64,000 nt of DNA from Planctomycetota bacterium. GTDB taxonomy: Bacteria; Planctomycetota; Planctomycetia; Pirellulales; PLA5. The stretch's first letter is position 1; each line of letters starts with the position of its first letter. Of this stretch, positions 4,857 through 62,301 are shown in pieces. The DNA is taken from assembly GCA_029259895.1 (NCBI GenBank), contig JAJDEG010000313.1:360-64359 (forward strand), written 5' to 3'. Below the pieces are notes generated by a model. It ran no database searches, was not told where the DNA came from, and saw only the letters and a program-made list of their open reading frames with translations. The translations under genes were made by a program, and so were the position numbers.

Positions 4857-4874
4857 TCTAGCATCGCACGCAAT

Positions 4875-5588: not shown

Positions 5589-5590
5589 CG

Positions 5591-6661: not shown

Positions 6662-6697
6662 AGCCGTTTGGCCCGCGGTGCGAACACGAGACCGCTT

Positions 6698-13211: not shown

Positions 13212-13245
13212 CACTTCGATGGTTGTGGTAAACGGCGGCTCGATG

Positions 13246-44819: not shown

Positions 44820-45608
44820 CGACCAGAGCGGTCGGCGCGCACTCCGTTCTTGTCGGTTGCGGCTAACCGAAGCGTCGGTGAGTGTGATCTTCTAATGCGT
44901 AGCAGTCTTGGACGCGCCGCGATCGACTTCGTCACTAGCGATCTCGGTCCCTGGCAAACACGCCGGGGACAACGCGCAAAACGCAAAGTGAAATGCGTAT
45001 CGCGCGAACCAAAAGCGACGTCGCGGCAACCGTCGCAACGAGCAGCGTCCAACCAATCGGCCACCACCGCCCAAGCGACAACGTTGACGTTTATCGTAGT
45101 CGATGGCCCCTCAGCGTCAAGCGATTGCACCTTTCGCCGCGCAAAATCTCGCCCGATTCCGACAGCCGAATCGCATTCCTTGACGGACGTGAGGGTCGTG
45201 CGGGTCGCGCCGCCGTTCGAGCAGCGCGGGTGGAGCGAATTATTCGCGTCGCGTCGCTTGCATTACGCGATTGTCGCGACTAGTATCAACGTCAGTTGGC
45301 GTTCGGCGCATAGACGGCGTCGCCATCGCCCCGAGCGGCCGTCCGATGGCGGGCGAAAACGAATCGGTTTGCGGCTTGTGAAGCGTTTTCTTTGGCTTCG
45401 CGGCGCGGAAACCGAGGGGAACGGAGTGCGTTCGCACGTCGCCTTCTTCGCTCGATACGGCACCGACCTCGCCGCCCTATCGCAAGGCTCCGCCGCAATA
45501 TTTCCGCACAGGCTTGCGCACGTTTCGCCCACACGGTGGACCATTCGCGGCCGGCGGTCTGCCGCGACGCTTGAATTCTCGAGTTTGCAGCTTTTGGCAG
45601 CTTTGACT
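44820..45608. promoter_or_regulatory. long divergent intergenic/control region between the exosortase and the sigma-like gene
   Basis: About 790 bp with no credible coding signal. The in-frame translation is Arg-rich nonsense and G+C is lower. Direct repeat GCAGCTTT at 45587-45594 and 45597-45604 (10-bp period) lies just before the probable sigma start. Confidence 0.4.
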
Positions 45609-46697
45609 GTGGCACCAAAGAAGACACCGAAGAAGACAACGAAGAAGAAGGCGAAAGCAGCGTCGCGCTCGCCCGCTTCCAAGCGAATGGCTTCAACGCC
45701 AATCACCGTGCCGGCGGCCGCCAAGCGCGTCCGCAAACGTGCCGCGGCGGTGTCCGAAAACGGCAAGCCCGCTCGCGCCGCCACGCCAGAGCCTACCGAC
45801 GGCGACTCGCAATCGACGGCCAAGGCCAAGAAAACCCCGAAAAGCAACGGCGTCGCGAAGAAAGTCCGCGCCAGCACGAACGGACGCCAGACCTCCGGAC
45901 GCCAAGCCTCGAAGAAGACCAAAACGCCCACCAAATCGAAGCCAACCGCCCGCAAAACAGCCGCCCGCAAAACAGCCGCCCGAATGCCCGAATCCCGAAT
46001 CCCGAATCCCGAATCCCGCTCCCACACGCCCGCGTCAGACCGCCTCCTCGTCGACCGTGCCCTAACCGGCCAGAGCGGTGCCTGGGATGCCCTCTACGAA
46101 CGCTGCCATCAGCCCCTGCTGGCCGCCATCCGCGCGATCATCGCCAACAGGGCCGCAGACCCGAATCTCATCGACGAACTGGCCGCCCGGGTCTGGTACG
46201 CGGTCGTCCGCGACGAGGGAAAGCTCCTCAATCGCTTCGACCCCAGCCGGGCCTGCTCGCTGACCACCTATTTGGCACTGCTAGCCAAAGACGAAGCGTC
46301 GCGCCTCTTCCGCTCCGAACGCCGCCGCCGCCGCCGAGAAACGGCCGTAGCCACCTCCGACCGCAAAACGCCCAAAAAATCCACAGCCGCCCAAACATCG
46401 GCCCGCATCACGCTCGCCGAGTTCGCCGCAACGCTAACCCCTGCCGAGAAAACGTTTTACGAAGAAATCGTAGTCCCCACCGGCCAAGCCAAAAACGGCA
46501 ACGGCAGCCAGAACGGCACAGACAAAGCCAGCAGCACGGGCGATGCTAACGGCACGGGCGATGCTAGCGGCACGGACAAAGCCAACGGCACCGAAAAATC
46601 CAACGGCACAGCCCACTCCAAAGGCCGCTCTCAAGCCAACGAGTGGCAACTAAACCACCGCGTCCGGCGAAAGCTGGAAAGATTCTTAACCGGCTGA
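45609..46697 (+). CDS. ECF-type sigma-70 family protein with Lys/Ala/Pro/Thr-rich N-terminal domain
   Basis: Region-2-like segment: WDALYERCHQPLLAAIRAII...LIDELAARVWYAVVRDEGKLLNRFDPSRACSLTTYLALLAKDEASRLFRSERRRR. Region-4-like end: EWQLNHRVRRKLERFL. The start is uncertain: GTG 45609 (MAPKKTPKKTTKKKAKAA...), ATG 45687 or ATG 45984. The ORF-track start at 44850 is not credible. Confidence 0.55.
   Translation: MAPKKTPKKTTKKKAKAASRSPASKRMASTPITVPAAAKRVRKRAAAVSENGKPARAATPEPTDGDSQSTAKAKKTPKSNGVAKKVRASTNGRQTSGRQASKKTKTPTKSKPTARKTAARKTAARMPESRIPNPESRSHTPASDRLLVDRALTGQSGAWDALYERCHQPLLAAIRAIIANRAADPNLIDELAARVWYAVVRDEGKLLNRFDPSRACSLTTYLALLAKDEASRLFRSERRRRRRETAVATSDRKTPKKSTAAQTSARITLAEFAATLTPAEKTFYEEIVVPTGQAKNGNGSQNGTDKASSTGDANGTGDASGTDKANGTEKSNGTAHSKGRSQANEWQLNHRVRRKLERFLTG
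45946..46018 (+). repeat. compound microsatellite: 15-mer CCGCCCGCAAAACAG x2.5, then heptamer CCCGAAT x5.6
   Basis: The 15-mer lies at 45946-45960 and 45961-45975, with a partial copy at 45976-45983. One heptamer lies at 45979-45985, then a single G, then four perfect contiguous heptamers at 45987-46014 plus CCCG to 46018. Confidence 0.95.
46538..46609 (+). repeat. 18-nt in-frame tandem repeat x4 (encodes GDANGT/GDASGT/DKANGT/EKSNGT)
   Basis: gggcgatgctaacggcac / gggcgatgctagcggcac / ggacaaagccaacggcac / cgaaaaatccaacggcac, read directly. It lies inside the sigma-like CDS between the region 2 and region 4 segments. Confidence 0.85.
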
Positions 46698-46706: not shown

Positions 46707-46727
46707 GTAGGGTGGGCTATGCCCACC
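46707..46727 (+). repeat. REP-like palindromic element, copy A
   Basis: GTAGGGTGGGCtatGCCCACC, a perfect 7-bp stem with a 3-nt loop, 10 nt after the sigma-gene stop. It translates as VGIAHPT on the opposite strand. Confidence 0.8.
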
Positions 46728-47024
46728 GTCGGTTCCATTCTCATCCCGGTTCGCCCCGCCGCAGCGCTCGGTTTCCCGTTCACCGAACCACGGGAAGCGG
46801 CCAACTTGGCAATTCTTCGGCGGCTTTTGCTCGGCAGGGTACACCCCACCCGACTCGGCTCCAAGCCCCCGAACCCAGCCCATCAAGCAAATTCCAAAAA
46901 CAACGAATTTAACCCCGCAAAAAACGCGAGTAATGCTCACAAATTCCCTCTTCCGAGCGGTCCCATCAACCGCTCCGGGCACCAACCCCCCTCTCCATTG
47001 CTGCTTCGCCGTGTGAGCACGATA

Positions 47025-47056
47025 CTCCAGGTTCCAGCAACTCCAGATTCCAGCAA
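47025..47056 (+). repeat. 16-nt tandem duplication CTCCAG(G/A)TTCCAGCAA x2
   Basis: Read directly at 47025-47040 and 47041-47056, with one mismatch. Confidence 0.8.
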
Positions 47057-47196
47057 AATCAGTCACAATGCGAAAACTCCCGGCCCCGCGAACTTGGTCC
47101 CGCGCTCCGAACCCCGCCCCCCTCACGCACAACCTACCAAATCCCCAGCCCAATTTCCACCAAAAAACAAGCCAATCCTCGCCATCTCCTAGCCAC

Positions 47197-47530: not shown

Positions 47531-48430
47531 ATGAAGAAACTATCTTTTGCTTTGGCCCTTTTGATTGCAGCCGTGGCTGGCAAACCGGCCTCTGCGGCAC
47601 TGACATTCACAAATTCGATCGTGAACGGGTTCAATACGTATCAGGATCAGTCGTTTGACCTGATCGCCGACAACGGCGACGGCGTGTTTAGCGTCGGCGA
47701 TGTGCTTTACGGTTTTGCTGTTTTAGACGACCGTACGTTCCCGCCATCTGGTGGTTTGGTTGTGGACTCAACCTACATGGTTTTCTCGCAGCAAGTATCG
47801 GCGATCGGTGTGCCAACCATTTTGGGTACTACGGTATCCTTTGCACCAACGACGGTAGCTGGCTTAACGTTGAGCAGCCTTACGGGAGGGGCTTCAACGG
47901 ACCCTGGGGCTATTTTCGCAATTTTTGAAAAACCTGCAGGCTTTGGCGACCTTATTAACAATGGTGCCGGCGTTCCCGCAAATATTGCGACGATCATTGG
48001 CGGAAGCTTCACGGCCAGCGCTGGCTTTGGTACGGCGACTAGCGAAGCGGACGATTTCTTCACGGCAGTGGTGATTAATCCGGGGGCGTTTACGTTGGCA
48101 ACCGTGCTTTCGAACGGCGAGCAAGTTGGCTCTTTCACGGCGGGTTTGACGATCCTTGAGCAGCCTGGGTTGCCATCTGTGATTTTCAACGAGCTTGTTG
48201 TCGCTATTAATCCAGGTTCTGCGGGTTCGTTGCACGAACTGTCCATCAGCGAAGGTGGGATCTCGGGCGTTGGAAATGCTCCAACTTCTCCCTCGCCGTA
48301 CTCCTACGGTGACCAGTTGAAGGCGACGATTCACGCGACCGTCATTCCGGAACCGACTTCCATGTTGGCATGGATGGGTTTGGCGTGCTGCTCGTTGCTC
48401 GTCGTCCGTCGACGCCGCAAGTCGGCCTAG
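47531..48430 (+). CDS. PEP-CTERM sorting-domain protein (exosortase substrate)
   Basis: Signal peptide MKKLSFALALLIAAVAGKPASA. C-terminal VIPEPTSMLAWMGLACCSLLVVRRRRKSA comprises the PEP motif, a TM helix and an Arg cluster. Confidence 0.92.
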   Translation: MKKLSFALALLIAAVAGKPASAALTFTNSIVNGFNTYQDQSFDLIADNGDGVFSVGDVLYGFAVLDDRTFPPSGGLVVDSTYMVFSQQVSAIGVPTILGTTVSFAPTTVAGLTLSSLTGGASTDPGAIFAIFEKPAGFGDLINNGAGVPANIATIIGGSFTASAGFGTATSEADDFFTAVVINPGAFTLATVLSNGEQVGSFTAGLTILEQPGLPSVIFNELVVAINPGSAGSLHELSISEGGISGVGNAPTSPSPYSYGDQLKATIHATVIPEPTSMLAWMGLACCSLLVVRRRRKSA

Positions 48431-48453: not shown

Positions 48454-48492
48454 AAAAAGCCGGCACCGAGATCATCGGTGCCGGCTTTTTTC
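48454..48492. terminator. bidirectional rho-independent terminator
   Basis: AAAAAGCCGGCACCGA-gatca-TCGGTGCCGGCTTTTTT: an 11-bp perfect stem (48459-48469 / 48475-48485) with an A-run on one side and a T-run on the other. It sits between convergent genes (stops at 48430 and 48497). Confidence 0.88.
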
Positions 48493-48496
48493 GTTT

Positions 48497-49324
48497 CTAC
48501 GTGACGGGCACACGACCCTGTTGGCGTTCGTCTCGAGCGGCAAGTGAGTCTTTGGCCGGTCGAACGGCGCGCAGCTCGACGGCTTGGCAGAACGTTGTCG
48601 TCTGAATTTCTTGCGAGACTCGTTGATCGCCGGCGGCGCGCGTTGCATCGGCCCAGTCGCTTTCTAGCCACATGCGGATGGACGAGACGACGCCGTCCCA
48701 GACGAACATGATTGGCACGACGGGGACAAGCCAGCACAGTGCCGCGCGCCTCAGTCGGTCTTTGAACGTAACCGCCGGCGTCAGCGGTAGGCAGAGTCCA
48801 GGTACTAGGGAACCGAACGCGAACAAACACGATGCGATGTTGCGGCGTAGCGGTTCAAACACGAGCATTGCGCCGGCGGATTCGACGAGCGTTTTGACGA
48901 CCGCCGCGCGCTGAGCGGCCGGCACGTGGTGTAGCGTGGCAGACAAGCAGAGCAGCGTTCGCGGTGGCCATGCGACGGGTTCGATGAAGTCATATTCTGC
49001 GCGATGCGTTACAACCCGGTCGCCGTACTTTCGTTTTAGTTCGGCGAACGCCTGCTCGTCAGGATATCGGTCGGAACACCAGAGTTCGATGTTGGGATCT
49101 GTGACGGTCGCAGCCAGTCGTTTCGTGATGGGCGCAGTGCCGGCCCCTAGTTCGACGACGCGGTCGTAGTCTCCTGTGGCGAGCTGCTTGCGAACTTCTT
49201 CGGCGACCCAGTCGTAGTAGCCGCGAAATGGGCGTGAATTGCCGCATTCAAGGATTTCCCGCAGCGTGACCCGCAGGCTTTCGGGCAGCCATTCCTGGTC
49301 CATGAACTCAAATAGATGCGGCAT
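48497..49324 (-). CDS. class I SAM-dependent methyltransferase with two C-terminal hydrophobic helices
   Basis: ATG at 49324 (MPHLFEFMDQEW...). Motif I is VVELGAGTAPITKRL. C-terminal segments IASCLFAFGSLVPGLCLPL and AALCWLVPVVPIMFVWDGVVSSI look membrane-spanning. Last gene of the operon. Confidence 0.75.
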   Translation of the reverse strand: MPHLFEFMDQEWLPESLRVTLREILECGNSRPFRGYYDWVAEEVRKQLATGDYDRVVELGAGTAPITKRLAATVTDPNIELWCSDRYPDEQAFAELKRKYGDRVVTHRAEYDFIEPVAWPPRTLLCLSATLHHVPAAQRAAVVKTLVESAGAMLVFEPLRRNIASCLFAFGSLVPGLCLPLTPAVTFKDRLRRAALCWLVPVVPIMFVWDGVVSSIRMWLESDWADATRAAGDQRVSQEIQTTTFCQAVELRAVRPAKDSLAARDERQQGRVPVT

Positions 49325-49356
49325 GCTTATCGTTCTCCGACGCGACGGATGGTCGC

Positions 49357-50469
49357 TTAGGCGTGGCTTGCGGCGAACGGGGTGTCCGCCGTTACGTGTC
49401 GTTGGCGCTTCACGAATACGCACTTCGCTTTGTCCTGGCGAGCGGCCCGCGATTGGGGAGCTTGCGCGTAGCCGAAGCGGATGACGGCGGCGATACGATG
49501 TTCGCTAATGACCCGCGCCGCGTCGTGCATCCGTCGAAACAGCCCGCGGCCGCGGCCGCCGATCTTCGGTAGTCGGGCAGGTTCACTGCCGCTGCAAAGC
49601 CAACCGTCGAGGACCGGAAGCGACATCATCGGTTGAGCCGCAAGGCCGGACGCAGTTAGCGTTAGCCAGTTGCGCTCAAAGGCTCGGCCAATGGCGACAT
49701 CGTTGTGGTGCGAGTCGCCGTTGGCTGCGATGATGCAGACGCCGGATGAGCCCGCGAGCAGTTTCAACGCTCGATTGCGAAAGCTTCGCAACACGCCGCC
49801 GTATCGTACGATTGGGTCGGGGAGATAGCGGAGCATCTTCAAGCCGAACCGATCGAACGCATTCAGGCCAAGCGATCCAAGCGGCAGGCCTTCTTCCGCG
49901 CGTGCGTCGGGCGGGAGGTCAAAGCGGATGTTTTCGAGGAACGCCTGACGCATCGAGCGAATGCCGAACATCATGGCGTCGGCCTCGCCAACAATGCGGG
50001 CAATTTCGCCAAGCTGGCTGCGGTCCGTGATCCAGTGCGTGTGGATGCCGTTTTCGCGGTCGGCGGCGGATTCGCGCTGTAGTTCGCCGAGAATCGGAAA
50101 ATTCTCTGCGGGCTGCCCGTCGTAGAAATTGCGATTCGTGTGCCGGCGGACGATCGCGTCGTCGATTACGCCCGCTTCGTCGATGCCGTTGGCGAGCGTT
50201 AGTCGGGCGAGCGAATCGCCTTCGCCCTGTTCGACCGTGAGCGGCCAGTGGTTGTGCCGCGCCGTGCGGACCATATTCTCAATCGCCGCGCCACAGGCGA
50301 TGCGAGCCATCCGCTGCCCAGCGTTCATCGGCGACTGGTCGCGCGTTTCGTCGACTTCGACGTCGATGCTCCTCGACGCTTCGTCGACGACGAACCGCCA
50401 CGGCTGCGTGTTGTCGCCGGAGGGGGCGAGTATCGCCGCGTCGAGTAGTGTTTCAAGTGCGGGGTTCAT
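49357..50469 (-). CDS. tandem (two-lobed) nitroreductase-family protein, Acg/Rv1355c-C-terminal-like
   Basis: ATG at 50469 (MNPALETLLDAAILAPSGDNTQPWRF...). The second half starts with IVRRHTNRNFYDGQP. The 670-aa ORF-track version has an Arg-rich N-terminus, a high-GC artefact that overlaps the ThiF gene out of frame. Confidence 0.8.
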   Translation of the reverse strand: MNPALETLLDAAILAPSGDNTQPWRFVVDEASRSIDVEVDETRDQSPMNAGQRMARIACGAAIENMVRTARHNHWPLTVEQGEGDSLARLTLANGIDEAGVIDDAIVRRHTNRNFYDGQPAENFPILGELQRESAADRENGIHTHWITDRSQLGEIARIVGEADAMMFGIRSMRQAFLENIRFDLPPDARAEEGLPLGSLGLNAFDRFGLKMLRYLPDPIVRYGGVLRSFRNRALKLLAGSSGVCIIAANGDSHHNDVAIGRAFERNWLTLTASGLAAQPMMSLPVLDGWLCSGSEPARLPKIGGRGRGLFRRMHDAARVISEHRIAAVIRFGYAQAPQSRAARQDKAKCVFVKRQRHVTADTPFAASHA

Positions 50470-50495
50470 GGTTACGCTTACGAAAGCAGTCGCCG

Positions 50496-51509
50496 CTAGT
50501 CCAGGCCGCCAAGGGTGCCGCCGAGGGCCCGTGCTTTTTGGTGGAGCACTTTTCTCTTGAGCCGTTGCATCGGGTGGCGGTTGCCGAAGGCGAGGCGGCC
50601 TTGGCGGAGCTTTCCGCGGTAGGCGTCGAATTGGGCGTAGTTGGGCGCCGCGCGGACGTGGCCGCGGCCCAATAGAACCTTGATCGTTTCCGCGCCGGCC
50701 ATGCCGCTGGCAAGTTGGCAGGCGATGCTGGCCGATGGGCCTTGGCGTTTCTCCAGGCTGACTTGCGACAGGTCGAGGTAGCCCAGGTGCGTCGCGCGCG
50801 GCGTGAGGCCGACGGCGAAGGCGATCAACTGGTCGAGTTGCGGTTGGCCGTCGCGGAGGTCGAAGTATTGGTCGAACGTCATGCCGCGCGGGTCGAACGA
50901 CAGCCAGCCAGCGCTGAAACCGATCGGCCCGGCGGTGATCGCCCACAGACCGCGCTCGAAGGCCGCGCGAAACAACAGCCGGCGGGCGGCGATGGAGAAG
51001 AAATCGACGCCGTCGATGAAGATGTCCGCGCCGCGAAAGAACTCGTCGACGTTGTGCGTGTCGACAACGTCGTGGATGACTTCGATATCGGCGTCGGGAT
51101 TGATGAGCCGAGCTTGTTCGGCCATGACTTCGGCCTTGCCGCGGCCGAGTGTGGCCGTGTTGGCACCGGCCTGACGATTGAAATTGGCGACCTCGAACGT
51201 GTCGGGATCGGCAATGGTAAAGCGGCCGATGCCGAGCCGGGCGAGTGTGAGCAGGTGAACGCCGCCGACTCCGCCCATGCCGGCGATGGCGACGCGGGCG
51301 TTGCGAAGAATTTCTTGTTCGTCCCGCGAGATCAAACCCAGATTGCGTGCGAAAGCTTCTTCGTAGGACCACGGCGAAGTCTCGACGCGAGTCGGCGCGA
51401 CCGCGGTCGCCAGCGCAGGCTCCGACAATTGGCCGGACGCCGCGTGAATGGCCTTGGCCTCGGCGGCGATGCTCGCGTCGGTCGTGTGCGGATGCGCGGT
51501 GGTCGACAT
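50496..51509 (-). CDS. ThiF/MoeB/HesA-family (E1-like) adenylyltransferase, Rv1355c-N-terminal-like
   Basis: ATG at 51509 (MSTTAHPH...). ATP loop VAIAGMGGVGG, then ANFNRQ and IDGVD. Only one Cys in 337 aa, so no CxxC zinc site. The start overlaps the HlyD stop by 1 nt (TAATG). Confidence 0.85.
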   Translation of the reverse strand: MSTTAHPHTTDASIAAEAKAIHAASGQLSEPALATAVAPTRVETSPWSYEEAFARNLGLISRDEQEILRNARVAIAGMGGVGGVHLLTLARLGIGRFTIADPDTFEVANFNRQAGANTATLGRGKAEVMAEQARLINPDADIEVIHDVVDTHNVDEFFRGADIFIDGVDFFSIAARRLLFRAAFERGLWAITAGPIGFSAGWLSFDPRGMTFDQYFDLRDGQPQLDQLIAFAVGLTPRATHLGYLDLSQVSLEKRQGPSASIACQLASGMAGAETIKVLLGRGHVRAAPNYAQFDAYRGKLRQGRLAFGNRHPMQRLKRKVLHQKARALGGTLGGLD

Positions 51510-52567
51510 TACGAACCTTGGTCCTGTGGTAGAGGCGCTGCGAGGATCACGTCGACGCGGAGGCCGACGACGAGGCCGCTGGCTGGTGACTGGTTTTGCG
51601 GGAGCGTGAGGTCGATCCAGATTTCGCGGGTTTTTATGTCGAGCCGTTCGCCGGGTTGGTCGTTGGTGAATTGCTTGCGAGTCATCTGCGGGCTGAGGCG
51701 GACGACCTTGCCCTCCAGTTCTCGTCCGGGAAGGCCGTCGGCGGCGACTTGCACCTTCATGCCAACGCGGACGCGAGGGGCGTCGTATTCTTCGATGAAG
51801 GCTCGCACGCGCAGGCTGCTGGTGTCGGCGATCGTGATGGGTGGTTTGGCGCTGGTGGGGCCGGTTAGTTCGCCGACTTCGGCGCTTAAGTCCAGGACTT
51901 GCGCCGGCGTGGGAGCGCGAAGCGTGCAGCGGTCGAGGTTGATTTGGGCCAGTTCGAGTTCGGCTTCGGAGGCGCGGATGCGGGCGCGGGCCAGGCGGAC
52001 TTCGTCGGCGCGGGGCGGCGAATCGAGCAGCGCAAATCGCGCTTGCGCGGCTTCGTATTCGGCCGTGGCCGTTTCGAGCATGGATTGCTGATCGTCGGCC
52101 TGCTGCTGAGCGACGGCGCTTTCGCGGCGAAGGCGTTCGATCCGCTCCCACGAACGCTGGGCCTGCTTCAGGCGTGCGAGGCGGCTGCGAACTTCCGCGG
52201 CGGCTTGCTGGCGTTCTTGCGTGTGCGCGCCGTTTTCCAGTTGTTCGAGCTGCGAGCGGGCCATTTCGAGTTGGGCCGCCGCTAGCTCGACTTGCTGGCG
52301 ATGCTCGCGATCGTCGAGCCGCAGAAGCACGTCGTCTTGGGCGACGGTTTGGCCGACGTGGACCAGGACTTCGAGGATGCGGCCGGCGAGTTGCGGGCGG
52401 AGATCGACGTTCTCGGTGACGCCTTCGACGATGCCGGGGGCGAAGATGCGATCGCCGACGGCCGGCCTTTCGCCGGTCGGCGGGGCGATGGTCGCGCGCG
52501 AATCGATCAGCACGCCGAGTGCGACGACCGACGTGAGCGCTGCGACAATCAATACGAACCGAAGCAT
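51509..52567 (-). CDS. HlyD/DevB-type periplasmic adaptor (membrane fusion protein)
   Basis: N-terminal anchor MLRFVLIVAALTSVVALGVLI, a lipoyl-like segment (AGRILEVLVHVGQTVAQDDVLLRLD), a long coiled coil, then LRAPTPAQVLDLSAEVGE. Confidence 0.85.
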   Translation of the reverse strand: MLRFVLIVAALTSVVALGVLIDSRATIAPPTGERPAVGDRIFAPGIVEGVTENVDLRPQLAGRILEVLVHVGQTVAQDDVLLRLDDREHRQQVELAAAQLEMARSQLEQLENGAHTQERQQAAAEVRSRLARLKQAQRSWERIERLRRESAVAQQQADDQQSMLETATAEYEAAQARFALLDSPPRADEVRLARARIRASEAELELAQINLDRCTLRAPTPAQVLDLSAEVGELTGPTSAKPPITIADTSSLRVRAFIEEYDAPRVRVGMKVQVAADGLPGRELEGKVVRLSPQMTRKQFTNDQPGERLDIKTREIWIDLTLPQNQSPASGLVVGLRVDVILAAPLPQDQGS

Positions 52568-52572
52568 CGTCG

Positions 52573-53403
52573 TTACCCCAAGGAAAGGATAGGTTGCAGT
52601 TCGGAGTCTCGCCGCGTGGCCGGTTCGGCGGCGTTTGACTCGGATAGGGTCGAATCGGCCGCGGTGGAATCTGCGGCGGTGGAATCGTCGTTATCTGGCC
52701 GATCCGCCGGCTGCTCGCCAGAGCAGAGGCAGCCGTTTTCGAGCGTGAGCACCCGGTCGGCGAAGGATTGGATGCGCGGATCGTGGGTGACGACGATCAC
52801 CGTGGCGCCAGTCCGAGCGGTGAGATCGCGGAGCAGTTGCATCGCCGCGTGGCCGTGCTGGCCGTCGAGCGAAGCGGTCGGTTCGTCGGCGAGGATGAGG
52901 TCGGGATTGGTGACGAGTGCGCGGGCGAGCGCGACGCGCTGGCATTGGCCGACGCTGAGCTTGCGAACGTTCTTGTTTCGGTGATCGGCCAGCGCGACGG
53001 CGTCGAGCAGTTCGGCGGCGCGGCGACGGGCGGCGGCTTCCGGAACGCCTTGCAAGGTGAGCGGCACGCAGACGTTTTCTTGTGCCGTGAGTCCGCGGAT
53101 GAGGTGGAAGCGTTGGAAGATGAAACCCATGTGGCGCAGTCGAAGCTGCGACGCGGCGTGGGGATCGAGACGACGCACGTCGTGGCCGAGCACTTCGACG
53201 CGGCCCTGGTCGGGGCTGAGGACGCAGCCGAGAATCGAAAGCAGCGTGGTCTTGCCGCTGCCCGACGGTCCGACGAGAAACACCCATTCGCCGCGATCGA
53301 CGGTGAACGTGATGTCGCGGAGAACGGGCGTGATGGTTGTGCCGCGGCCGTACGCTTTGGAGAGCGCATCGACGAGGATCGGCGTTGGCGCGTTGTGCGG
53401 CAT
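52573..53403 (-). CDS. ABC transporter ATP-binding protein (MacB/LolD/DevA type)
   Basis: ATG at 53403 (MPHNAPTPILV...). Walker A is LVGPSGSGKTTLLSILG, the signature is LSVGQCQRVALARAL, and Walker B is LILADEPTASLD. The acidic C-terminal tail carries an STAADSTAADST repeat. Confidence 0.9.
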   Translation of the reverse strand: MPHNAPTPILVDALSKAYGRGTTITPVLRDITFTVDRGEWVFLVGPSGSGKTTLLSILGCVLSPDQGRVEVLGHDVRRLDPHAASQLRLRHMGFIFQRFHLIRGLTAQENVCVPLTLQGVPEAAARRRAAELLDAVALADHRNKNVRKLSVGQCQRVALARALVTNPDLILADEPTASLDGQHGHAAMQLLRDLTARTGATVIVVTHDPRIQSFADRVLTLENGCLCSGEQPADRPDNDDSTAADSTAADSTLSESNAAEPATRRDSELQPILSLG

Positions 53404-53426
53404 GGTGGACCGGAGCGTCTTTGCGA

Positions 53427-54551
53427 TCAGGATTGCAGGACCATTGCCGGATCGACGCGGCGGATACGGAGATAGGGCGCGGCGGCCGCGGCGAGGCAAA
53501 TGATGAGTACGAGCGTGACGCTGCCGAACGACAGCCACCAGGGGACGACGATCGGCGCGCGCGGGTTGCTCATCAGCGATTGGCTGGCAAAGACCACCAT
53601 CAGGCCGACGAGCGAACCGACGAGCGCCATGGCGACGGCTTGAGACGAAAGGATCGTGAATATCTGGCGGTCCGTCGCGCCGATGGCCTTGAGCGCGGCG
53701 TATTCGGTAATTCGATCGAGTACCGAGGCGTACAACGTTTGGGCGACAATGACGAGGCCGACGGCCAGACCGAGAAGCGTGGCCGCGCCGAAGCTAATGC
53801 CCAGGCCGGTTCGTTTTAGCCAGTAGTCGATCGACCAACCGGCGTATTCGTCGCGCGTGCAGGCTTCGACCTCGGGCAGGCACTGCTTGATGTCTCGGCA
53901 GACGTCGGCGGCGTTTGCACCGGGGACGAGCGTGACGACGAAATAGGAGCACTTGTCGGCCGGCTTTTGCAGGTAGCCAGCGGCCCGTTCGAGCGTGGTG
54001 AAGACGTAGGGCGTGACCAGGAATCCGAGGATGCCTTCGCTTTGCGCCACGATGCGCGCCCTTTGCCCGCCGATCTCGCGGAGGTCGCCCACCTGCGGGT
54101 GTCCGATCTTGTCGGCGTCGCAGACGTCGATGATGACGCCGTCAGGCTTGCGGATATCGTCGGATCGTCCTTCGACGATTCGCCAGGCGTTGCCGAGGAG
54201 CGATGCCGGGTCGCTGCCGACGACGAGGACCGGTTCAAAGCCGCCGTCGGGAAGCGTCATCACGCTGTGGCCGATGATGTACGGTTCCGCCTGGGCGACG
54301 CCGGGGACGGCCCGAACGCGGTGGACCCAGCGGCGGGGAATGTCGCGGGGAAAATCGACGTTGTGCATGTGGCGGTGGCCGACCCAAACGTCGGCCTCGC
54401 CGTTGTCGACGAGCAGGCTGGCCTTGCGAATAAGCCCGACGAACAGACCGCCTTGGACGTTGACCAAGACGACGGCGAAGACGACGCCGACGAGCGCCGT
54501 AAGCAGCTTGCCGCGGTCTTCGAGCAGCGTCTTGAGGGCGAGGGTCCACAT
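53427..54551 (-). CDS. FtsX-fold ABC exporter permease, DevC-like
   Basis: 374 aa. N-terminus MWTLALKTLLEDRGKLLTALVGVVFAVVLVNVQGGLF, a periplasmic domain of about 220 aa, and three C-terminal helices. This architecture matches DevC/MacB type VII ABC exporters. Confidence 0.85.
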   Translation of the reverse strand: MWTLALKTLLEDRGKLLTALVGVVFAVVLVNVQGGLFVGLIRKASLLVDNGEADVWVGHRHMHNVDFPRDIPRRWVHRVRAVPGVAQAEPYIIGHSVMTLPDGGFEPVLVVGSDPASLLGNAWRIVEGRSDDIRKPDGVIIDVCDADKIGHPQVGDLREIGGQRARIVAQSEGILGFLVTPYVFTTLERAAGYLQKPADKCSYFVVTLVPGANAADVCRDIKQCLPEVEACTRDEYAGWSIDYWLKRTGLGISFGAATLLGLAVGLVIVAQTLYASVLDRITEYAALKAIGATDRQIFTILSSQAVAMALVGSLVGLMVVFASQSLMSNPRAPIVVPWWLSFGSVTLVLIICLAAAAAPYLRIRRVDPAMVLQS

Positions 54552-54573
54552 AATGTCGAAATTGTCATCACGA

Positions 54574-55347
54574 TCAGAGAGTCGGCTCCATCGACGTTAC
54601 GTCGATGGATAGCGAGTCGAAAGCATGTTGATCGACGAGAGCGAGCTTTCCCTCGCTGCTGGCGACAATCGCGAAGTACTCGCGGTCGGACGGAGACATC
54701 GGACGGGGCCGCACCACGTCCGCAGGCAGTGGCTCGCCGAAGAACAACTCGTAGTTCGGAGGTTGCTCGCGGTCGACGTACGCGAAGTCGAGGCAAAGAG
54801 CTTCAGCCAACTTATTGCAGACGGAAGGATACTTTCGGACATCGCCGATCGGCTGAAACGCCATGTAGCGGCGATAGAAGCGGGCGTGTCGCGGATGGAC
54901 GGCGACCAACAGTTGGTCGACGCCGCGAAAACGGGCGCTTTGCACCATCAGCCGGCAAAGCTCAACGAATACGGGGAAGTAACGGCCTGGGTCGCGACGC
55001 CGATCGGCCAGGCAGGAAACCTCGGCGATCGTACCGCCGGCAGCGCGTAGATCCTCGATTTCGCCAGGGTAGATGACCTCCATCGGCAGTCCGAGGTTGC
55101 TGTCGACGATCAGGCTTACCGTGCAGATGACCTCGCCATCGAGGCGGGCGATGAACACGTCGCTGGTCGGGAGAAGCTGATAGGGCGTAACCCTCATTTC
55201 GTAAGGGTTGGGCGGACACAGACCGACGCGCGTATACGCTTGGTGGGTCAGCCCAAAGGCGGCGGCGCGTTCGGCTCGGGTGGCGGCGATCTTATAGTCG
55301 ATCGGCACTCCGGCAACGCTGTTTCGCAAATTCGACAGCAAACTCAT
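54574..55347 (-). CDS. FeeM-like long-chain N-acyl amino acid synthase (GNAT/autoinducer-synthase fold)
   Basis: 257 aa. AAAFGLTHQAYTRVGL...MRVTPYQLLPTSDVFIARLDGEVICTVSLIVDSNLGLPMEVIYPGEIEDLRAAGGTIAEVSCLA matches my recollection of the FeeM/NAS core (DS..GLPM, E..LR, AEV..LA). First gene of the operon. Confidence 0.6.
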   Translation of the reverse strand: MSLLSNLRNSVAGVPIDYKIAATRAERAAAFGLTHQAYTRVGLCPPNPYEMRVTPYQLLPTSDVFIARLDGEVICTVSLIVDSNLGLPMEVIYPGEIEDLRAAGGTIAEVSCLADRRRDPGRYFPVFVELCRLMVQSARFRGVDQLLVAVHPRHARFYRRYMAFQPIGDVRKYPSVCNKLAEALCLDFAYVDREQPPNYELFFGEPLPADVVRPRPMSPSDREYFAIVASSEGKLALVDQHAFDSLSIDVTSMEPTL

Positions 55348-55683
55348 TTCCCACCGCGGAGTGCGTCATGGCTGGTTGGGGATCGCGCATTGCCGAAACC
55401 TCTAAAACCCTACGGCGCTTAGCCTTAGGCGTCAAAAAAACGCGGGCGGTTCGATATCTAAAAGGGAATTTGGGCCGGGCGGGGCCGAGCGACCGCAACA
55501 CCTCGGACGAAGTTCGTCATCGGCGGCACGCCGCGACGGCATTAACGAACGTGCGGATTCTGCGACCATTTTGCGGGTTTGCAACGCGAAAACGCGCCGG
55601 CCTCGCCGATAGGCTCGACGCGCGCAGCTCGGGAAAAGGGAGTAGGGGTGTGCGGAACGAAAGCAGTGACGGGGCGCGTTGGA

Positions 55684-57150
55684 CTACTCCGTGGGAGGGA
55701 GCCTTTGGACGACTTCTTTGGCCGTGGCGGTATCTCCCAGGTCGCCGGTCACGAAATTCACGCGCAGTACCGCAATGACGTAGTCGTAAATGGCGAGTTG
55801 ATAGTCGCGGGCGGTGACGGCGTGGCGCGTTTCGGCGTCGAGGACTTCGGTGTTCGTGCCGACGCCTTGGCCGTAGCGGAGCCGCGACACGCGCAAGCTC
55901 TCCGCCGCCTGCTCGACCGCCTCGCGCGTGACCTCGATGCGGCTGTGTGCTTCGCGCGTGGCGAGCCACGCTTGGCGAACTTCGAGTGCGATTTGCAGCT
56001 TTTGATCTTCGTGGAGCGCGAGGATGCGGTCCGCGGAGAGTGAGTCGGCCTCGGCCGCGTAGCGCTTGCGGCCGGCGTCGAACACGTTGTACTGAAGCAC
56101 CACGCCGGCGGCGGCGATGCCTTCGGGCGTCTGAAAGTCGTTTTCCGTGAACGCATAGGAGCCGCGCAGTTCGATCTGCGGCGCGTGGGCGGCCCGGGTC
56201 GCGTCGGCCAAGTGGCGAAGCGACGCGGACTGCGCCGCGAGCGACGCGAGTTCGGGGCGGTTGTTCCACGCGCGGTCGGTAAGGCGATCGACTTGCTCGC
56301 GAAGCGGCACGAGCGGCAACTCTTCGAGCCGGACCGGCGCGTCCAGTGGGCGGGCAAGATGGCGGTTGAACTTGGCGCACGACTGATCGAGGTGGCTTTG
56401 GGCTTGGATCTCGCGGTGACGGGCTTGGGCTCGGGCGACTTGAGCCGCGAGCAGGTCGGTCTGCGGCACCATTTCGTGCTCGAACATCTGAGCGACGTCG
56501 CGTTCGTGAGCGAGCATGTTTTGAAGGCTCTGGCTGGCGACCGCCGAGATTTGCCGAGCGCGAAGCACGCCGACGTAGGCCTCGGCGACGGCCATTTTCA
56601 CCGCAAGTTCCGTCCGCTCGGCCTCGGCATGTTCGGACGAGACGCGCGCTTCGGCAGCGCCGACTTGATGCGTGATGCGGCCGCTCGTGTAGAGCGGCAG
56701 CGACGCAGTGGCGCCGGCGGCGAAATTGTCGCGTTGCGAATAGGGGAACGTCAGCGGTCCGCCGAAGCCGGGAGCGACGAATTGGAACGACGGCTCGCTA
56801 TCGCGAACGGTGTAGCCCGTTTCCACGAAAAGCTGCGGCCAGCGATCGGCCGACGCGGCGGACGTCCGCATTTGCGCGGCGGAGATCGCCTGCCGGCTGG
56901 CGTCGAGGCGATGGTCGACCCCCAGCGCGTGCGACCACGCCTGGGCCAACGTTTCCGCGCGAGTTGACGACGCGGAAACTAGGCCGATGGCGAGCGATAG
57001 CGCAATATGGGCAACGACGATTCGCAATTCCGCCTCGACGAGACTTGCGGCTGCTAGCAATGGCGGCATCGCACAATTGGGCAGAGTTCGCGCAGCCGCT
57101 TGAGAAACTTCGGCGCTGGTTGCGGCGGGCGGTGAGGAATTGTGAGGCAC
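55684..57150 (-). CDS. TolC-family outer-membrane efflux protein
   Basis: About 460-490 aa with two OEP-type repeats. The N-terminus after the signal peptide is ETLAQAWSHALGVDHRLDASRQAISAAQ. The ORF-track start is GTG at 57150. ATG at 57069 (MPPLLAAAS...) is more likely. Confidence 0.85.
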   Translation of the reverse strand: MPHNSSPPAATSAEVSQAAARTLPNCAMPPLLAAASLVEAELRIVVAHIALSLAIGLVSASSTRAETLAQAWSHALGVDHRLDASRQAISAAQMRTSAASADRWPQLFVETGYTVRDSEPSFQFVAPGFGGPLTFPYSQRDNFAAGATASLPLYTSGRITHQVGAAEARVSSEHAEAERTELAVKMAVAEAYVGVLRARQISAVASQSLQNMLAHERDVAQMFEHEMVPQTDLLAAQVARAQARHREIQAQSHLDQSCAKFNRHLARPLDAPVRLEELPLVPLREQVDRLTDRAWNNRPELASLAAQSASLRHLADATRAAHAPQIELRGSYAFTENDFQTPEGIAAAGVVLQYNVFDAGRKRYAAEADSLSADRILALHEDQKLQIALEVRQAWLATREAHSRIEVTREAVEQAAESLRVSRLRYGQGVGTNTEVLDAETRHAVTARDYQLAIYDYVIAVLRVNFVTGDLGDTATAKEVVQRLPPTE

Positions 57151-57249: not shown

Positions 57250-58596
57250 TTACCGAGGCGAGAGCTGGGCCTCACTTAGCAAGATTTCCGCGACGACAGC
57301 GTTGCCGGCGGCCGTCCAATGGGCGTCGTCCGGAAAGTAGACCAACTCGCCTCGATTGGCCGCCGCGACCAGGCCCGGCGTGAGGTCGACGTAGTCGATT
57401 TCGTGCGACGCGCACCAGCGGACGAGCAGCCCGTTGAGGTCGCTGGCACGCCACTCGCCGATGGTCGAACCGTCGACCGGCACGACGAGGTCGCGATAAA
57501 CGCGCCATTTCGTCGGCACGAAGACTAAAACGATGCGAATATCGTGCGCGCGCGTTTCTTTCGCCGCGGCGAGCCATAGCGACTGCGTCTTGGCAAGCGT
57601 CGCTCGCTCGGCCGGAGGCAGTGGTTCGCAGCGGTAGCCAAAGTACATGGTCTGGCCGTCTCGATCGCCGACATTTCGGAGTCGGCCTGCCCGCGATCGC
57701 GCGATTGCCGGGTTCCGCGGCGTCGTCGTCGACCAGTTGGCGAAGGCCAGCGCCGCATTGCGGACGAAGCTGCGGCGGAAGAACCCGTGTTCGCGGCGGA
57801 GCCAGCCGTCCCAATCGGCGCGGATTCCGTCGTAGGCCGCAGCGTTGGCGAGGTCGTTGCCTTCGTAGAACATCCAGACGACCGTCTTCGGCTGTGCGCC
57901 AAAACCAAATCGACGCATGGCCGCCCATTGTTGCTGAGGGCCGTAGCCGCCGTGGGCGAGATTCAGCACGGGCCGGGCAAGACTTCTCGACAGCCGAGCA
58001 ACGACCGTCTCCTCGAACGGCACGAGCACCGCCTCGGCGTACGAATCGCCAAGGACGACAACGTCGGCCGATTCTATTTGGACGTCGCCAGGCGCACCGT
58101 TGCGGAAGCCATTGGCGTCCCAGGCGACGTCGACGGCGTACTTCCGGTCGGTTTCAATGTCGAGGCGGTCGACGAGGTCGCCCGGCACTTCGCCGGAAAA
58201 ATGCTCGTGGGGAACGTGGATGCCGATCAGCTCGCGATCGAGGCGGTAGCGGGGATTGTAAAGCGTCGAGACGCCGTCGGTCGCCAGCACGGTTCGGTAA
58301 TCGAGCCAACCAAAGAGAACGGGAATCTCGCAGAGTGCCACGCCAAGCAGCGTCGAAAGGGCAGCAGCCGCCAGACGAAATTTGCGGACCCGGCGTTCGG
58401 CCGGCTCGTTGGTAGCTAGGACGTAAGCCAAACCGAGGACGCCAAGCGAAACGAGAACCAGGAGCACAAATCGACCCATCGGAAGCCGTCCAGCAACGCC
58501 AGCGGGGTCCGGATTTCGCAGAATGCCCCAGCACCAGACGGCAGCAAGGGCAGCGAAAACCGCGGCAAAAGTAGCTCTCGGACGGGGTGCGGGCAT
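57250..58596 (-). CDS. membrane-anchored SGNH/AlgJ-AlgX-like O-acyl(acetyl)transferase or esterase
   Basis: ATG at 58596 (MPAPRPRATF...), followed by three N-terminal helices. Motifs VVVLGDSYAEA, VFVPTKWRVY and FPDDAHWTAAGN (the D-x-H-W seen in AlgJ-type enzymes). Confidence 0.6.
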   Translation of the reverse strand: MPAPRPRATFAAVFAALAAVWCWGILRNPDPAGVAGRLPMGRFVLLVLVSLGVLGLAYVLATNEPAERRVRKFRLAAAALSTLLGVALCEIPVLFGWLDYRTVLATDGVSTLYNPRYRLDRELIGIHVPHEHFSGEVPGDLVDRLDIETDRKYAVDVAWDANGFRNGAPGDVQIESADVVVLGDSYAEAVLVPFEETVVARLSRSLARPVLNLAHGGYGPQQQWAAMRRFGFGAQPKTVVWMFYEGNDLANAAAYDGIRADWDGWLRREHGFFRRSFVRNAALAFANWSTTTPRNPAIARSRAGRLRNVGDRDGQTMYFGYRCEPLPPAERATLAKTQSLWLAAAKETRAHDIRIVLVFVPTKWRVYRDLVVPVDGSTIGEWRASDLNGLLVRWCASHEIDYVDLTPGLVAAANRGELVYFPDDAHWTAAGNAVVAEILLSEAQLSPR

Positions 58597-58940
58597 GAAT
58601 TCTACCGTAATCTCCGCCCGGCGCGACGTACAGGCGGTCGGTTTCCGCGAGCAGGACTTTTGCAATTCCGTCGGCAATTCTAGGCTCTGACGCGGGCAGA
58701 ACCCTGCCTCCTAGCGGTTAGCTAAATATCCCCAGAAACCAGGGGTTTGGCCGTCTCTAAACTTCTAGGGTGTCAGGACTTACGGCGCGGCGGCCTAAAG
58801 CAAGTAGATAGGCCGGCCGTGGCTGTGCGCGATTCGTGGGGACTTGCTAGCGACGGACATTCGTCGCGGCTTGAAATTCGTTCGCGGATTCGGCAACTAG
58901 ATTTGCTTACTTATGCAGTGGAATCAGGAGTTTTGAAGCT

Positions 58941-59942
58941 ATGATGCGCGTGATAACAAGGGCGGTTGCCGTCTTGGTTTTGGCTTTGTGTTCGTCGCCG
59001 ACGTTTGCGGCGATCACGGTCAATGGCGAGATGTCGGACTGGGGCGTGAACGGCGGTTTGACCGGCAATACGATCTCGTTTTCCGGGGCGTCGGGTGTGA
59101 CGAATTCGGCGACGTTCTTGCCGGACCCCGATCCCGTGCCGACGTCGACCGTGAACAATTTCTTGGGAATGGGGTCGACGCTGTTCTATCAACACGAGGA
59201 TCGCGTTGGAAGCGGCGGTTTCGTGGGTCCGCATTACGGCGGTCAGGATTACGACGTCGAGTTCTTGGGCGCTCTGAGATCGGGTAGCGACTTGCTTATT
59301 GGCATTGTTTCCGGCCAGCGCCCGGATAACGGTTTCAACAATTACAGCCCGGGCGACATTCGCTTGACGATCAACGGAATGCTATTCGGCATTGAAGTCG
59401 GCGGAACCGGCGGCGGTACCGGCCTGTTGACCGAAGGCGGCCCTGGTTCGACGTACAAGCTGTACTCGAACGGCCACACGAGAGGCGCGCAAGATTCGGA
59501 CGGTACTGTCTACGGGGCGGACCCGCCGGGAACGTTGCTCCCCAGTCAGACGGCCGGCTCGATTTGGAAGCCGGATAACTGGGTCGACGTGGCGTTCGAT
59601 CCGGGTGACGATACGCAGTTTCAGATTCTCGCTGGCGATTTCGTTGGAACCAGCGACTACGCCTTCTCGCGAGACTCAGTTGGAACGCACCACTCGTTCA
59701 TCGAAGCGAAGATCGACTTGAACCTGATCATGGCATACTTGGGATTGGACAACCTTGGGGATTTGGACGTGCAGTCGGTCGAGTGGTCGCCGTCGTGCCG
59801 TAACGACGTCCTGTTCGTCGAACTCGAAACGGAAACCGGTCCGAACGACGTCGTTCCGGAACCGGCCAGCATCTTGATCTGGTCGCTCGTTTCCGCGGCT
59901 GCGGTCTTTTCGTATCGTAGGAAGTCGCAGCGACGATCGTAG
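58941..59942 (+). CDS. PEP-CTERM sorting-domain protein
   Basis: AGGAG at 58926-58930 lies 10 nt before the ATG. Signal peptide MMRVITRAVAVLVLALCSSPTFA. C-terminus VVPEPASILIWSLVSAAAVFSYRRKSQRRS. Confidence 0.9.
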   Translation: MMRVITRAVAVLVLALCSSPTFAAITVNGEMSDWGVNGGLTGNTISFSGASGVTNSATFLPDPDPVPTSTVNNFLGMGSTLFYQHEDRVGSGGFVGPHYGGQDYDVEFLGALRSGSDLLIGIVSGQRPDNGFNNYSPGDIRLTINGMLFGIEVGGTGGGTGLLTEGGPGSTYKLYSNGHTRGAQDSDGTVYGADPPGTLLPSQTAGSIWKPDNWVDVAFDPGDDTQFQILAGDFVGTSDYAFSRDSVGTHHSFIEAKIDLNLIMAYLGLDNLGDLDVQSVEWSPSCRNDVLFVELETETGPNDVVPEPASILIWSLVSAAAVFSYRRKSQRRS

Positions 59943-62265: not shown

Positions 62266-62301
62266 CGAGGAGTTCTAAGTTCTGCGGTGACGAGTTGCGA
62301 G

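Follow-up and report, generated by a model that had tools for sequence, protein, structure and literature searches.

A seven-gene planctomycete operon that probably makes and exports an acyl-oxazolone or N-acyl-dehydro-amino-acid lipid

The operon and its core enzymes

The whole stretch of DNA analysed here (the window; 64,000 nucleotides of contig JAJDEG010000313.1, assembly GCA_029259895.1) is an exopolysaccharide (EPS) and PEP-CTERM locus of a Planctomycetota genome. According to the open reading frame (ORF) listing its minus strand carries a block of eight co-oriented genes, of which seven are tightly packed and the eighth, a TolC-like gene, lies upstream. We consider it probable that the seven-gene operon serves the biosynthesis and export of an acyl-oxazolone or N-acyl-2,3-dehydro-amino-acid lipid of the tyrazolone or stieleriacine type. 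The first gene encodes a FeeM-like synthase of N-acyl amino acids (NAS, 54574–55347). It is followed by a MacB-type (DevC-like) ATP-binding cassette (ABC) permease (53427–54551), an ABC ATPase resembling DevA, MacB and LolD (52573–53403), a periplasmic adaptor, i.e. a membrane-fusion protein (51509–52567), a ThiF-like protein that is a putative ATP-dependent cyclase (50496–51509), a two-lobed flavin-dependent oxidase of the nitroreductase (NTR) superfamily (49357–50469) and a methyltransferase-like protein of an unannotated family (48497–49324).

Gene boundaries were taken from the ORF listing and from direct reading of the minus strand. The gene order, the junctions of 22, 23, 5, −1 (TAATG), 26 and 32 nt and the gap of 336 nt between the TolC-like gene and the NAS gene reproduce exactly what an earlier, sequence-only reading of this DNA had given. 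The proteins of 257, 337, 370 and 275 residues are identical, residue for residue, to independently called proteins of public collections. The bidirectional intrinsic terminator that had been proposed at the end of the operon is real. Its hairpin (48454–48490) has 16 pairs, nine of them G-C, a 5-nt loop and an A-run and a T-run on its flanks, and it is common to the operon and to a convergent PEP-CTERM gene. A terminator scan of the 9-kb stretch, including the inside of the operon, found no second hairpin of comparable strength. Since all junctions are 32 nt or less and the only strong terminator stands behind the last gene, the seven genes fit a single operon.

NAS, a ThiF-like enzyme and an oxidase of the NTR superfamily together are the published acyl-oxazolone pathway, whose core chemistry was elucidated between 2020 and 2025; hence, this class of gene cluster is not new. 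The remark of the sequence-only reading that it knew of no published pathway with such a gene set is outdated, as OxzAB, TyzACB, TrzAS and the Stieleria clusters are all published. In Pseudoalteromonas rubra, OxzA, which is an N-acyltransferase, and OxzB, in which ThiF and nitroreductase are fused, convert Tyr or Phe and acyl-CoA to oxazolones in an ATP-dependent manner, the products being tyrazolones and phenazolones (bioRxiv 10.1101/2020.06.11.147165). Reconstitution was achieved for TyzA, TyzB and TyzC of Mycobacterium tuberculosis. TyzA attaches an acyl group to Tyr or Phe, TyzB is a ThiF homologue of 318 residues that uses ATP for cyclisation, and TyzC, a monomeric Acg-like enzyme of the NTR superfamily with 372 residues, desaturates N-acyl-Tyr with O2 (PMC10404671). 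TrzA and TrzS (Rv1356c/Rv1355c) of the same species lead to tryptazolones, and the order of cyclisation and desaturation differs between the Tyz and Trz systems (PMC12856293). Stieleriacines are N-acyl-dehydrotyrosines of the planctomycete Stieleria, which were assigned to a cluster comprising NAS genes, a methyltransferase, a ThiF-like protein and an oxidoreductase (PMC7293339). In 2025 NAS, ThiF and nitroreductase were generalised to a shared route by which three phyla make N-acyl-dehydrotyrosines (PMC12479983).

Searches with Pfam and NCBIfam profiles and their curated cut-offs upheld all domain names given by the sequence-only reading. The NAS, which would take the role of OxzA, TyzA and NasY, matches FeeM (PF21926) with 159.5 bits over profile positions 1–158 of 158, far above the gathering threshold of 27, and its sole sequence match in the PDB is FeeM (2G0B). 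TIGR03694, the PEP-CTERM/exosortase-associated acyltransferase model against which the protein had also been proposed to be checked, gave only 13.2 bits (E 0.043; cut-off 111.95). The NAS gene is physically linked to an exosortase locus although the protein falls outside this family. The ThiF-like protein matches PF00899 (158.6 bits) and passes the equivalog model NF006077 (PRK08223) with 417 bits against a cut-off of 266. Its score is 351 bits on NF011424, a model of ThiF-NTR fusions, and no more than 55 bits on the model of the Rv1355c/TrzS family. We infer from these scores that the protein is the probable equivalent of TyzB and of the N-terminal part of OxzB. Because the OxzB-like score of 351 bits stands against 55 bits for Rv1355c/TrzS, the enzyme seems to belong to the tyrazolone/phenazolone rather than the tryptazolone side. 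In a PDB sequence search, its best homologue of known structure is TcdA, an enzyme that builds an oxazolone on tRNA.

The NTR protein, which would correspond to TyzC and the C-terminal part of OxzB, matches the C-terminal domains of NF011424 and NF005901. Its AlphaFold2 (AF2) model (predicted local distance difference test, pLDDT, 93.2) resembles most closely, among PDB folds, 2YMV, a single-chain homologue of Acg (E 2.8e-13; template-modelling (TM) scores 0.66/0.74). This is the only full-length match, while ordinary NTR subunits span about half of the model. The two-lobed architecture stated in the sequence-only reading is confirmed at the level of the predicted structure, which is that of a single-chain monomer mimicking an NTR dimer. 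The model agrees with TyzC as published, a monomeric NTR of the Acg-like type (PMC10404671).

The curated models also link the three enzymes to each other. NF011425 (989 residues) contains FeeM-like, ThiF and nitroreductase domains in one chain, and NAS, ThiF and NTR from the window match its positions 31–199, 305–583 and 619–803, respectively. NF011424 (679 residues) and NF005901 (Rv1355c family, 722 residues) are ThiF-nitroreductase fusions. Because the domains are fused in these models, the three separate proteins presumably work together (Rosetta-stone argument). Acyl-oxazolone clusters have been defined by a ThiF-like gene adjacent or fused to the gene of a flavin-dependent oxidase of the NTR superfamily, together with an adjacent N-acyltransferase gene (PMC12856293). 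In the window, the ThiF gene adjoins the NTR gene at a distance of 26 nt and the NAS gene lies in the same operon.

E1-like enzymes are capable of other reactions. ThiF, MoeB and MccB, which are among the PDB matches of the window protein, activate carboxylates for intermolecular transfer. Accordingly, the N-acyl amino acid could be adenylated for ligation to a second nucleophile such as a carrier protein, a peptide or an amine, after which redox and methyl tailoring would lead to a new class of lipids; the methyltransferase-like family of the last gene is uncharacterised. We regard this as improbable. The window ThiF belongs to a family of curated models in which it is joined to NTR and NAS domains, and in all characterised systems of this grouping adenylation is followed by intramolecular cyclisation to an oxazolone and not by ligation (PMC10404671, PMC12856293, bioRxiv 10.1101/2020.06.11.147165). 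Moreover, the ORF listing contains no ubiquitin-like, ThiS-like, carrier or precursor-peptide gene in the operon.

ThiF-like proteins and dehydrogenases with a nitroreductase fold also co-occur in azole pathways for RiPPs (peptides made by the ribosome and modified after translation), and the ATPase of the operon matches the bacteriocin-export model TIGR03608, with 176.7 bits below its cut-off of 254.85. ThiF and NTR might then form a RiPP-type module resembling a thiazole/oxazole-modified microcin (TOMM) azoline oxidase, or a MoeB/ThiF-like sulfur-transfer module, unrelated to the NAS, with the ABC proteins exporting a peptide. This is extremely unlikely, since a YcaO gene and a precursor peptide are both missing and the ThiF and MoeB equivalog models score far below their cut-offs (83 against 275 and 62 against 377 bits). 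The tri-domain fusion NF011425 and the adjacent NAS gene in most related loci also tie the module to N-acyl amino acid synthesis.

The export pump and the methyltransferase-like protein

Between the NAS and ThiF genes lie the three subunits of a pump. The permease matches PF02687 (FtsX, 70.8 bits) and PF12704 (MacB_PCD, 40.6 bits), and its four transmembrane segments (residues 12–42, 248–279, 297–328 and 332–364) together with a periplasmic domain correspond to the MacB topology. With 111.2 bits it remains below the cut-off of DevC (TIGR01185, 290.35), yet DevC is its best NCBIfam model. The same applies to the ATPase (ABC_tran, 121 bits), for which DevA (TIGR02982) is the best-scoring model although 220.6 bits fall short of 295.8; its scores on the MacB, LolD and FtsE models are nearly equal. 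The adaptor carries an N-terminal hydrophobic segment as an anchor (residues 1–25), matches HlyD_3 and HlyD_D23 and passes TIGR01730 (104.9 bits; cut-off 94.9), while DevB (TIGR02971) is missed with 107.5 against 129 bits. An FtsX domain and MacB periplasmic core, four transmembrane segments, a partner ATPase and a membrane-fusion protein are the features of the MacB superfamily. From these matches the pump is best described as a tripartite ABC pump of the MacB superfamily (type VII), with DevCAB as the nearest curated relatives. Since all three subunits stay below the Dev cut-offs, the term DevBCA-type used in the sequence-only reading can be kept in the sense of closest to DevBCA, as judged from the permease and ATPase models, but not of membership.

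The ATPase has a C-terminal tail of some 45 residues (52573–52720; DNDDSTAADSTAADSTLSESNAAEP) that is acidic, of low complexity and of the Ser/Thr/Ala type, with a short tandem STAAD repeat. This tail is not conserved, as tblastn matches in related loci stop at about residue 224–238.

The DevBCA-HgdD exporter of heterocyst glycolipids, in which HgdD is the TolC protein, and MacAB-TolC (PMC5985334, PMC8277102) share with the window pump an FtsX-type permease with four transmembrane segments, a separate ATPase and an adaptor. All of them need an outer-membrane factor, and the predicted cargo of the window pump is a lipid as well. The subunit order, however, is C-A-B instead of the B-C-A of DevBCA, all subunits score below the Dev cut-offs, and the pump is embedded in a biosynthetic operon with an N-acyl amino acid derivative as the predicted cargo in place of a glycolipid. 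In the literature searched, no link was found between DevBCA or MacB pumps and N-acyl amino acid or oxazolone clusters. According to a review (PMC5985334), substrates are believed to enter MacB-type pumps from the periplasmic side. For the lipid, this would mean that it first has to get to the outer leaflet.

The last protein of the operon has no Pfam model at threshold. A word-indexed search found 156 homologues, and a profile of the family run against 1.84 billion representatives found 76 at E <= 1e-30 and 1016 at E <= 1e-10. Distant members score on Methyltransf_25/23/12 at sub-threshold level only, and the family profile has only marginal matches (E 0.01 or worse) among PDB sequences. The ornithine-lipid N-methyltransferase OlsG was rejected as an identity, since the match of 21 bits (cut-off 350) is confined to the motif for S-adenosylmethionine (SAM).

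The AF2 model (pLDDT 92.4) matches many class I SAM methyltransferases, such as BelI, CysG, DnrK and CmoA, with a Foldseek probability of 1.0 and TM scores of 0.4–0.57. The family alignment contains an invariant ELGAGTA motif, an S-x3-HH motif, an EP motif and, in the hydrophobic region, a number of Trp and Arg residues, and E58, A61, G62, D85 and D112 are invariant in 44 homologues. The Rossmann-like seven-stranded fold, the Gly-rich motif and the acidic residues after β2 and β4 are those expected of a class I SAM methyltransferase. Two hydrophobic segments (residues ~163–185 and 194–216, Kyte-Doolittle peaks near 2.0) had been taken in the sequence-only reading for C-terminal helices. Both helices are present, but in the model they form an insertion between β5 and β6 of the Rossmann core. 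This is the usual position of the substrate-binding lid in the methyltransferase fold. Thus, the insertion is more likely a membrane-dipping or lipid-binding cap than a C-terminal anchor, and the protein is predicted from its model to tailor the lipid at the membrane.

Conservation and genomic surroundings

A scan with the ThiF protein, one genome per species, gave 32 loci, 15 from Planctomycetota and 17 from other phyla, in which homologues of the window proteins were located by tblastn. Further loci were obtained by exact protein look-up. The closest public relative is the metagenome-assembled genome PLA5 (locus L001) with 59–88% identity over six full-length operon proteins. Permease, ATPase and adaptor lie directly upstream of ThiF on the same strand in nine of the 15 Planctomycetota loci (L001–L004, L006, L009, L011, L015 and L020) and in none of the 17 others. 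Two more Planctomycetota loci (L008, L010) have a rearranged pump, again with no counterpart in other phyla. The pump is absent from three (L005, L007, L012) and from all 17 loci of other phyla, which have only NAS, ThiF and/or NTR; L013 is ambiguous, with a DevB fragment at the contig edge. The pump-bearing loci span several orders of Planctomycetota. The NAS gene immediately precedes the permease gene on the same strand in 7/15.

The synteny that the sequence-only reading had asked for exists beyond the window. In L033, on a 566-kb scaffold, all seven genes recur in the same order, and downstream the layout of the window is repeated gene for gene, with a pair of convergent genes and then the exosortase, the Wzz/AAA_31 kinase and a giant tetratricopeptide-repeat (TPR) protein. 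L039 combines the pump with FabH, two NAS genes, a short NTR, ThiF, NTR and a methyltransferase-like gene. In L042 (a metagenome-assembled genome from Planctomycetota, GCA_963767535.1, 4.78-Mb contig, 11086–13262), an EryCIII-like glycosyltransferase and an acyltransferase of the 2-oxoacid-dehydrogenase type follow NAS, pump, ThiF and NTR; going by the gene content, these end genes suggest glycosylated or further acylated variants of the lipid. Because the three layouts differ there, we regard NAS, pump, ThiF and NTR as the planctomycete core and the tailoring end as variable.

The methyltransferase-like gene recurs in these clusters as an accessory that they can do without. Each of the five contexts examined has a FeeM gene no more than a few kb away from it, four of them also have ThiF and NTR, and in L033, L037 and L039 it comes directly after NTR, as it does in the window. 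In L035 (ERZ25039533 contig_32601, 1–10753), it closes a different lipid-tailoring set without ThiF or NTR, consisting of FeeM, a ketosynthase, two AMP-binding proteins, an NAD-dependent reductase and a FAD oxidase, after which a NusG-like gene and an exosortase follow. This arrangement links the family more widely with the NAS/exosortase context than with the formation of oxazolones.

An exosortase within 3–9 kb was found in 5/15 of the Planctomycetota loci and was not observed in other phyla; the loci concerned, including those from the protein look-up, are L001, L002, L003, L011, L020, L033 and L035. Five such adjacencies are far above chance since one or a few exosortase genes are expected per multi-megabase genome, although the loci are not phylogenetically independent. 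Elsewhere the pump stays with NAS, ThiF and NTR where no exosortase lies within 10 kb (L006, L009, L015, L042).

These distributions bear on the question of what the pump transports. It might be a general efflux or self-protection system, or a Lol/MacB-like machine that serves the PEP-CTERM/EPS envelope system rather than the lipid. The locus is indeed an envelope and EPS locus, the three Dev models are not reached, the ATPase scores nearly as well on MacB, LolD and FtsE, and mycobacterial oxazolones are found mostly inside cells (PMC12856293). A pump with another task is nevertheless unlikely, because the three genes are kept with tiny junctions on the strand of ThiF and beside it in 9–11 of the 15 Planctomycetota loci across several orders, and because the exosortase-free loci named above retain it with NAS, ThiF and NTR. 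The Stieleria cluster likewise couples NAS genes to efflux pumps, which are of the resistance-nodulation-division (RND) type there. Export of the operon's own lipid thus remains our preferred reading.

The TolC-like protein upstream (55684–57069, minus strand; the maximal ORF reaches a GTG at 57150) contains two stretches of the OEP domain (PF02321, 169 bits) and gives 123 bits on TIGR01844 (cut-off 225). By its domain it is a possible candidate for the exit duct of the pump. Its position before the operon is as described in the sequence-only reading, but this adjacency is not general: a TolC homologue was found nearby in only 2/15 related Planctomycetota loci and in none from other phyla, and in L001 it is absent upstream, a DUF1571 gene occupying its place. 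The gene probably belongs to a separate transcription unit. Within the 336-nt gap, the alignment of the window with L001 shows a sole well-conserved stretch of about 70 nt directly before the NAS gene (55348–55420, minus strand). A sigma-70 promoter scan was at background (one site against 1.2 expected), this block contains no sigma-70 consensus and no Rfam family, and an Rfam scan of the whole window was without matches. To judge from its conservation, the block may be an operon-specific promoter or 5' leader. Since it is conserved in L001, the operon probably has its own promoter, independent of TolC transcription.

Tails of the PEP-CTERM type are present in three plus-strand genes around the operon and an exosortase lies 3678 nt from its end, in agreement with the flanks and the distance of 3.7 kb in the sequence-only reading. 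The convergent gene (47531–48430) encodes a putative exosortase substrate of 299 residues with the C-terminus VIPEPTSMLAWMGLACCSLLVVRRRRKSA. On the upstream flank lie the PEP-CTERM genes 58941–59942 and 59957–61642, the latter with a dockerin domain (Dockerin_1, 31 bits). The exosortase (43773–44819, minus strand; EpsH family) scores 202.7 bits with PF09721 and, against a cut-off of 105.55, 147 bits with TIGR02602. It opens a downstream block with a tyrosine autokinase, a PrsT-like TPR protein of 1490 residues and EPS genes.

A gene for an AlgX-like SGNH protein (57250–58677, minus strand), possibly a polysaccharide O-acetyltransferase, is located upstream of TolC. Further out, the region 61810–63732 (minus strand) encodes a NADAR-domain protein and a CEMIP-type β-helix protein. 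The AlgX-like, NADAR-domain and CEMIP-type genes on this side fit a surface-polysaccharide locus.

In L033, L035, L037, L039 and L040, too, the methyltransferase-like gene is followed by a convergent gene for a protein of 318–354 residues. The first four have a convergent pair as in the window, the second protein comprising 125–163 residues, and L040 has a single convergent gene of 354 codons. The sequence of the convergent PEP-CTERM protein is not conserved; similarity (28%) was found in L039 only. The arrangement is therefore conserved, while the sequences are hardly similar.

In the window, the convergent PEP-CTERM gene pairs with a small plus-strand gene (46719–47192), whose product has no family match. 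Between the exosortase and these two genes, on the strand opposite to the operon, lies the ORF 44850–46697. Its C-terminal ~265 residues (mainly ~45900–46697) are conserved in L001 (60% identity) and L009 (35%), and its N-terminal ~350 residues resemble an over-extended ORF. Given a weak similarity to sigma-70 region 2 and extracytoplasmic function (ECF) sigma factors, the product may be a regulator of the locus. The minus-strand ORF 45263–46027 was discarded as probably spurious since it has no homologue in any locus, whereas the overlapping plus-strand ORF is conserved.

Proposed pathway and its meaning

The scheme that we propose for the operon builds on the domain identities, the gene order and their conservation as given above, and takes its chemistry from the characterised homologues. 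The FeeM-family synthase would N-acylate an amino acid, which we infer to be aromatic (probably Tyr or Phe), using fatty acyl-ACP (acyl carrier protein) or acyl-CoA. The ThiF-like enzyme would then adenylate the free carboxylate with ATP, and attack by the amide oxygen would close a 5(4H)-oxazolone ring. The Acg-like flavoenzyme would introduce a double bond between Cα and Cβ using O2, either before or after cyclisation. Hydrolysis of the ring may yield the free N-acyl-dehydro-amino acid. We predict that the last protein, with its methyltransferase fold and hydrophobic lid, methylates the lipid at the membrane. Finally, permease, ATPase and adaptor, with an outer-membrane factor that is possibly the upstream TolC-like protein, would pick up the lipid, presumably as one of these species, in the inner membrane or periplasm and drive it out through the outer membrane. 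The sequence-only reading came close to the chemistry demonstrated for the characterised systems with its succession of acylation, adenylation, redox tailoring, methylation and export; it differs in the adenylation step, which leads to cyclisation in the characterised systems.

Among the nearest known relatives in terms of gene content are the candidate stieleriacine clusters described for Stieleria maiorica Mal15 and for S. neptunia Enr13 (PMC7293339, PMC12479983). Like the window operon, they come from Planctomycetota and contain a FeeM-type NAS, a ThiF-like protein (annotated as TcdA), a nitroreductase or oxidoreductase and a methyltransferase; they also have a PEP-CTERM gene in or adjoining the cluster, adjoining EPS and secretion genes, and genes of tripartite pumps beside NAS. 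The PEP-CTERM gene of the described Stieleria cluster lies inside it and the EPS genes upstream, and 'putative transporters' were suggested for export of the product (PMC7293339); these are RND pumps with adaptors beside NAS genes (PMC7293339 supplement). There are several differences. The Stieleria pumps are of the RND type (CzcA-like with an adaptor) and stand beside extra NAS copies, whereas the window pump is of the MacB/DevCAB type and stands between NAS and ThiF. The Stieleria methyltransferases are SfmM2-, DnrK- or UbiE-like, while that of the window, compared by description, is a member of an unannotated family that the Stieleria papers do not name. The window operon is also compact, with seven genes and a single NAS, in contrast to clusters with extra NAS copies.

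OxzAB shares all three catalytic domains with the window operon, and there, too, the NAS gene comes first. However, OxzB is a single di-domain protein and not encoded by separate ThiF and NTR genes, the hosts are Proteobacteria, and no transporter or methyltransferase is mentioned (bioRxiv 10.1101/2020.06.11.147165). TyzACB (Rv2336–Rv2338c) resembles the window in having a separate ThiF cyclase (318 residues; 337 in the window) and a separate Acg-like oxidase (372; 370 in the window). A lipid-transporter gene, mmpL9, adjoins the tyz cluster of M. tuberculosis as the pump accompanies the window cluster, but this transporter is of the MmpL (RND) type, lies outside the operon and has no proven link to the pathway; the host is an actinobacterium and a methyltransferase is missing. 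With its 55 bits on the Rv1355c/TrzS model the window ThiF seems nearer to TyzB and OxzB than to TrzS.

Several observations weigh against the proposed pathway. The sequence does not reveal the specificity for the amino acid and the acyl group, hence the product is a prediction. The PRK08223 model on which the ThiF assignment is based carries only the name 'hypothetical protein', the NTR protein is below the cut-off of the Acg family NF047509 (135.3 against 199 bits), and all three subunits of the pump are below those of the Dev models. The fold matches of the last protein include CmoA, RdmB and TamK, which do not methylate. In L001, the closest relative, its gene is reduced to a remnant of 74 residues, and in L042 the glycosyltransferase and acyltransferase genes take its place. 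A sensitive search found no NAS within 10 kb in L003 and L004, both of which have the pump. In S. neptunia, deletion of the in-cluster nasY2 did not reduce stieleriacines (PMC12479983). Consequently, clustering is no guarantee of the product made. In addition, no oxazolone was detected in planctomycetes (PMC12479983), and the mycobacterial oxazolones are mostly cell-associated (PMC10404671, PMC12856293).

The linkage of NAS genes and exosortases was noted long ago (Craig et al. 2011, as cited in PMC7293339). A more far-reaching, and in our view very unlikely, possibility is that the exported product is a reactive acyl-oxazolone (azlactone), which would act as a lipid donor. Brought by the built-in pump to the periplasm or the cell surface, it would acylate amines of exosortase-processed PEP-CTERM proteins or of exopolysaccharide and thereby anchor them by a lipid, and the membrane protein with the methyltransferase fold would tune or cap its reactivity. 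If true, this would give a chemical basis for the so far unexplained link between NAS and exosortase genes.

Two features of the operon appear to be undescribed, namely the built-in ABC pump and the unnamed methyltransferase-like gene. In the literature searched we found no description of an ABC pump between NAS and ThiF as a conserved feature of Planctomycetota, and none of the methyltransferase-fold family of the last gene. Where acyl-oxazolone lipids go was stated as the next question for M. tuberculosis (PMC10404671), and the Stieleria work left export and some methylation steps unassigned (PMC12479983). The methyltransferase-fold family without a Pfam model is a candidate for such an unassigned tailoring step in stieleriacine-type clusters. 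As a clean seven-gene unit the operon is suited to heterologous expression, and the repeated exosortase adjacency makes the NAS-exosortase link testable. To a specialist the finding will not be surprising, yet it bears on the destination of these lipids and on the co-location of NAS with exosortase loci. The conservation of a dedicated tripartite pump between the synthase and cyclase genes of a compact operon argues that in Planctomycetota the product is meant to leave the cell.

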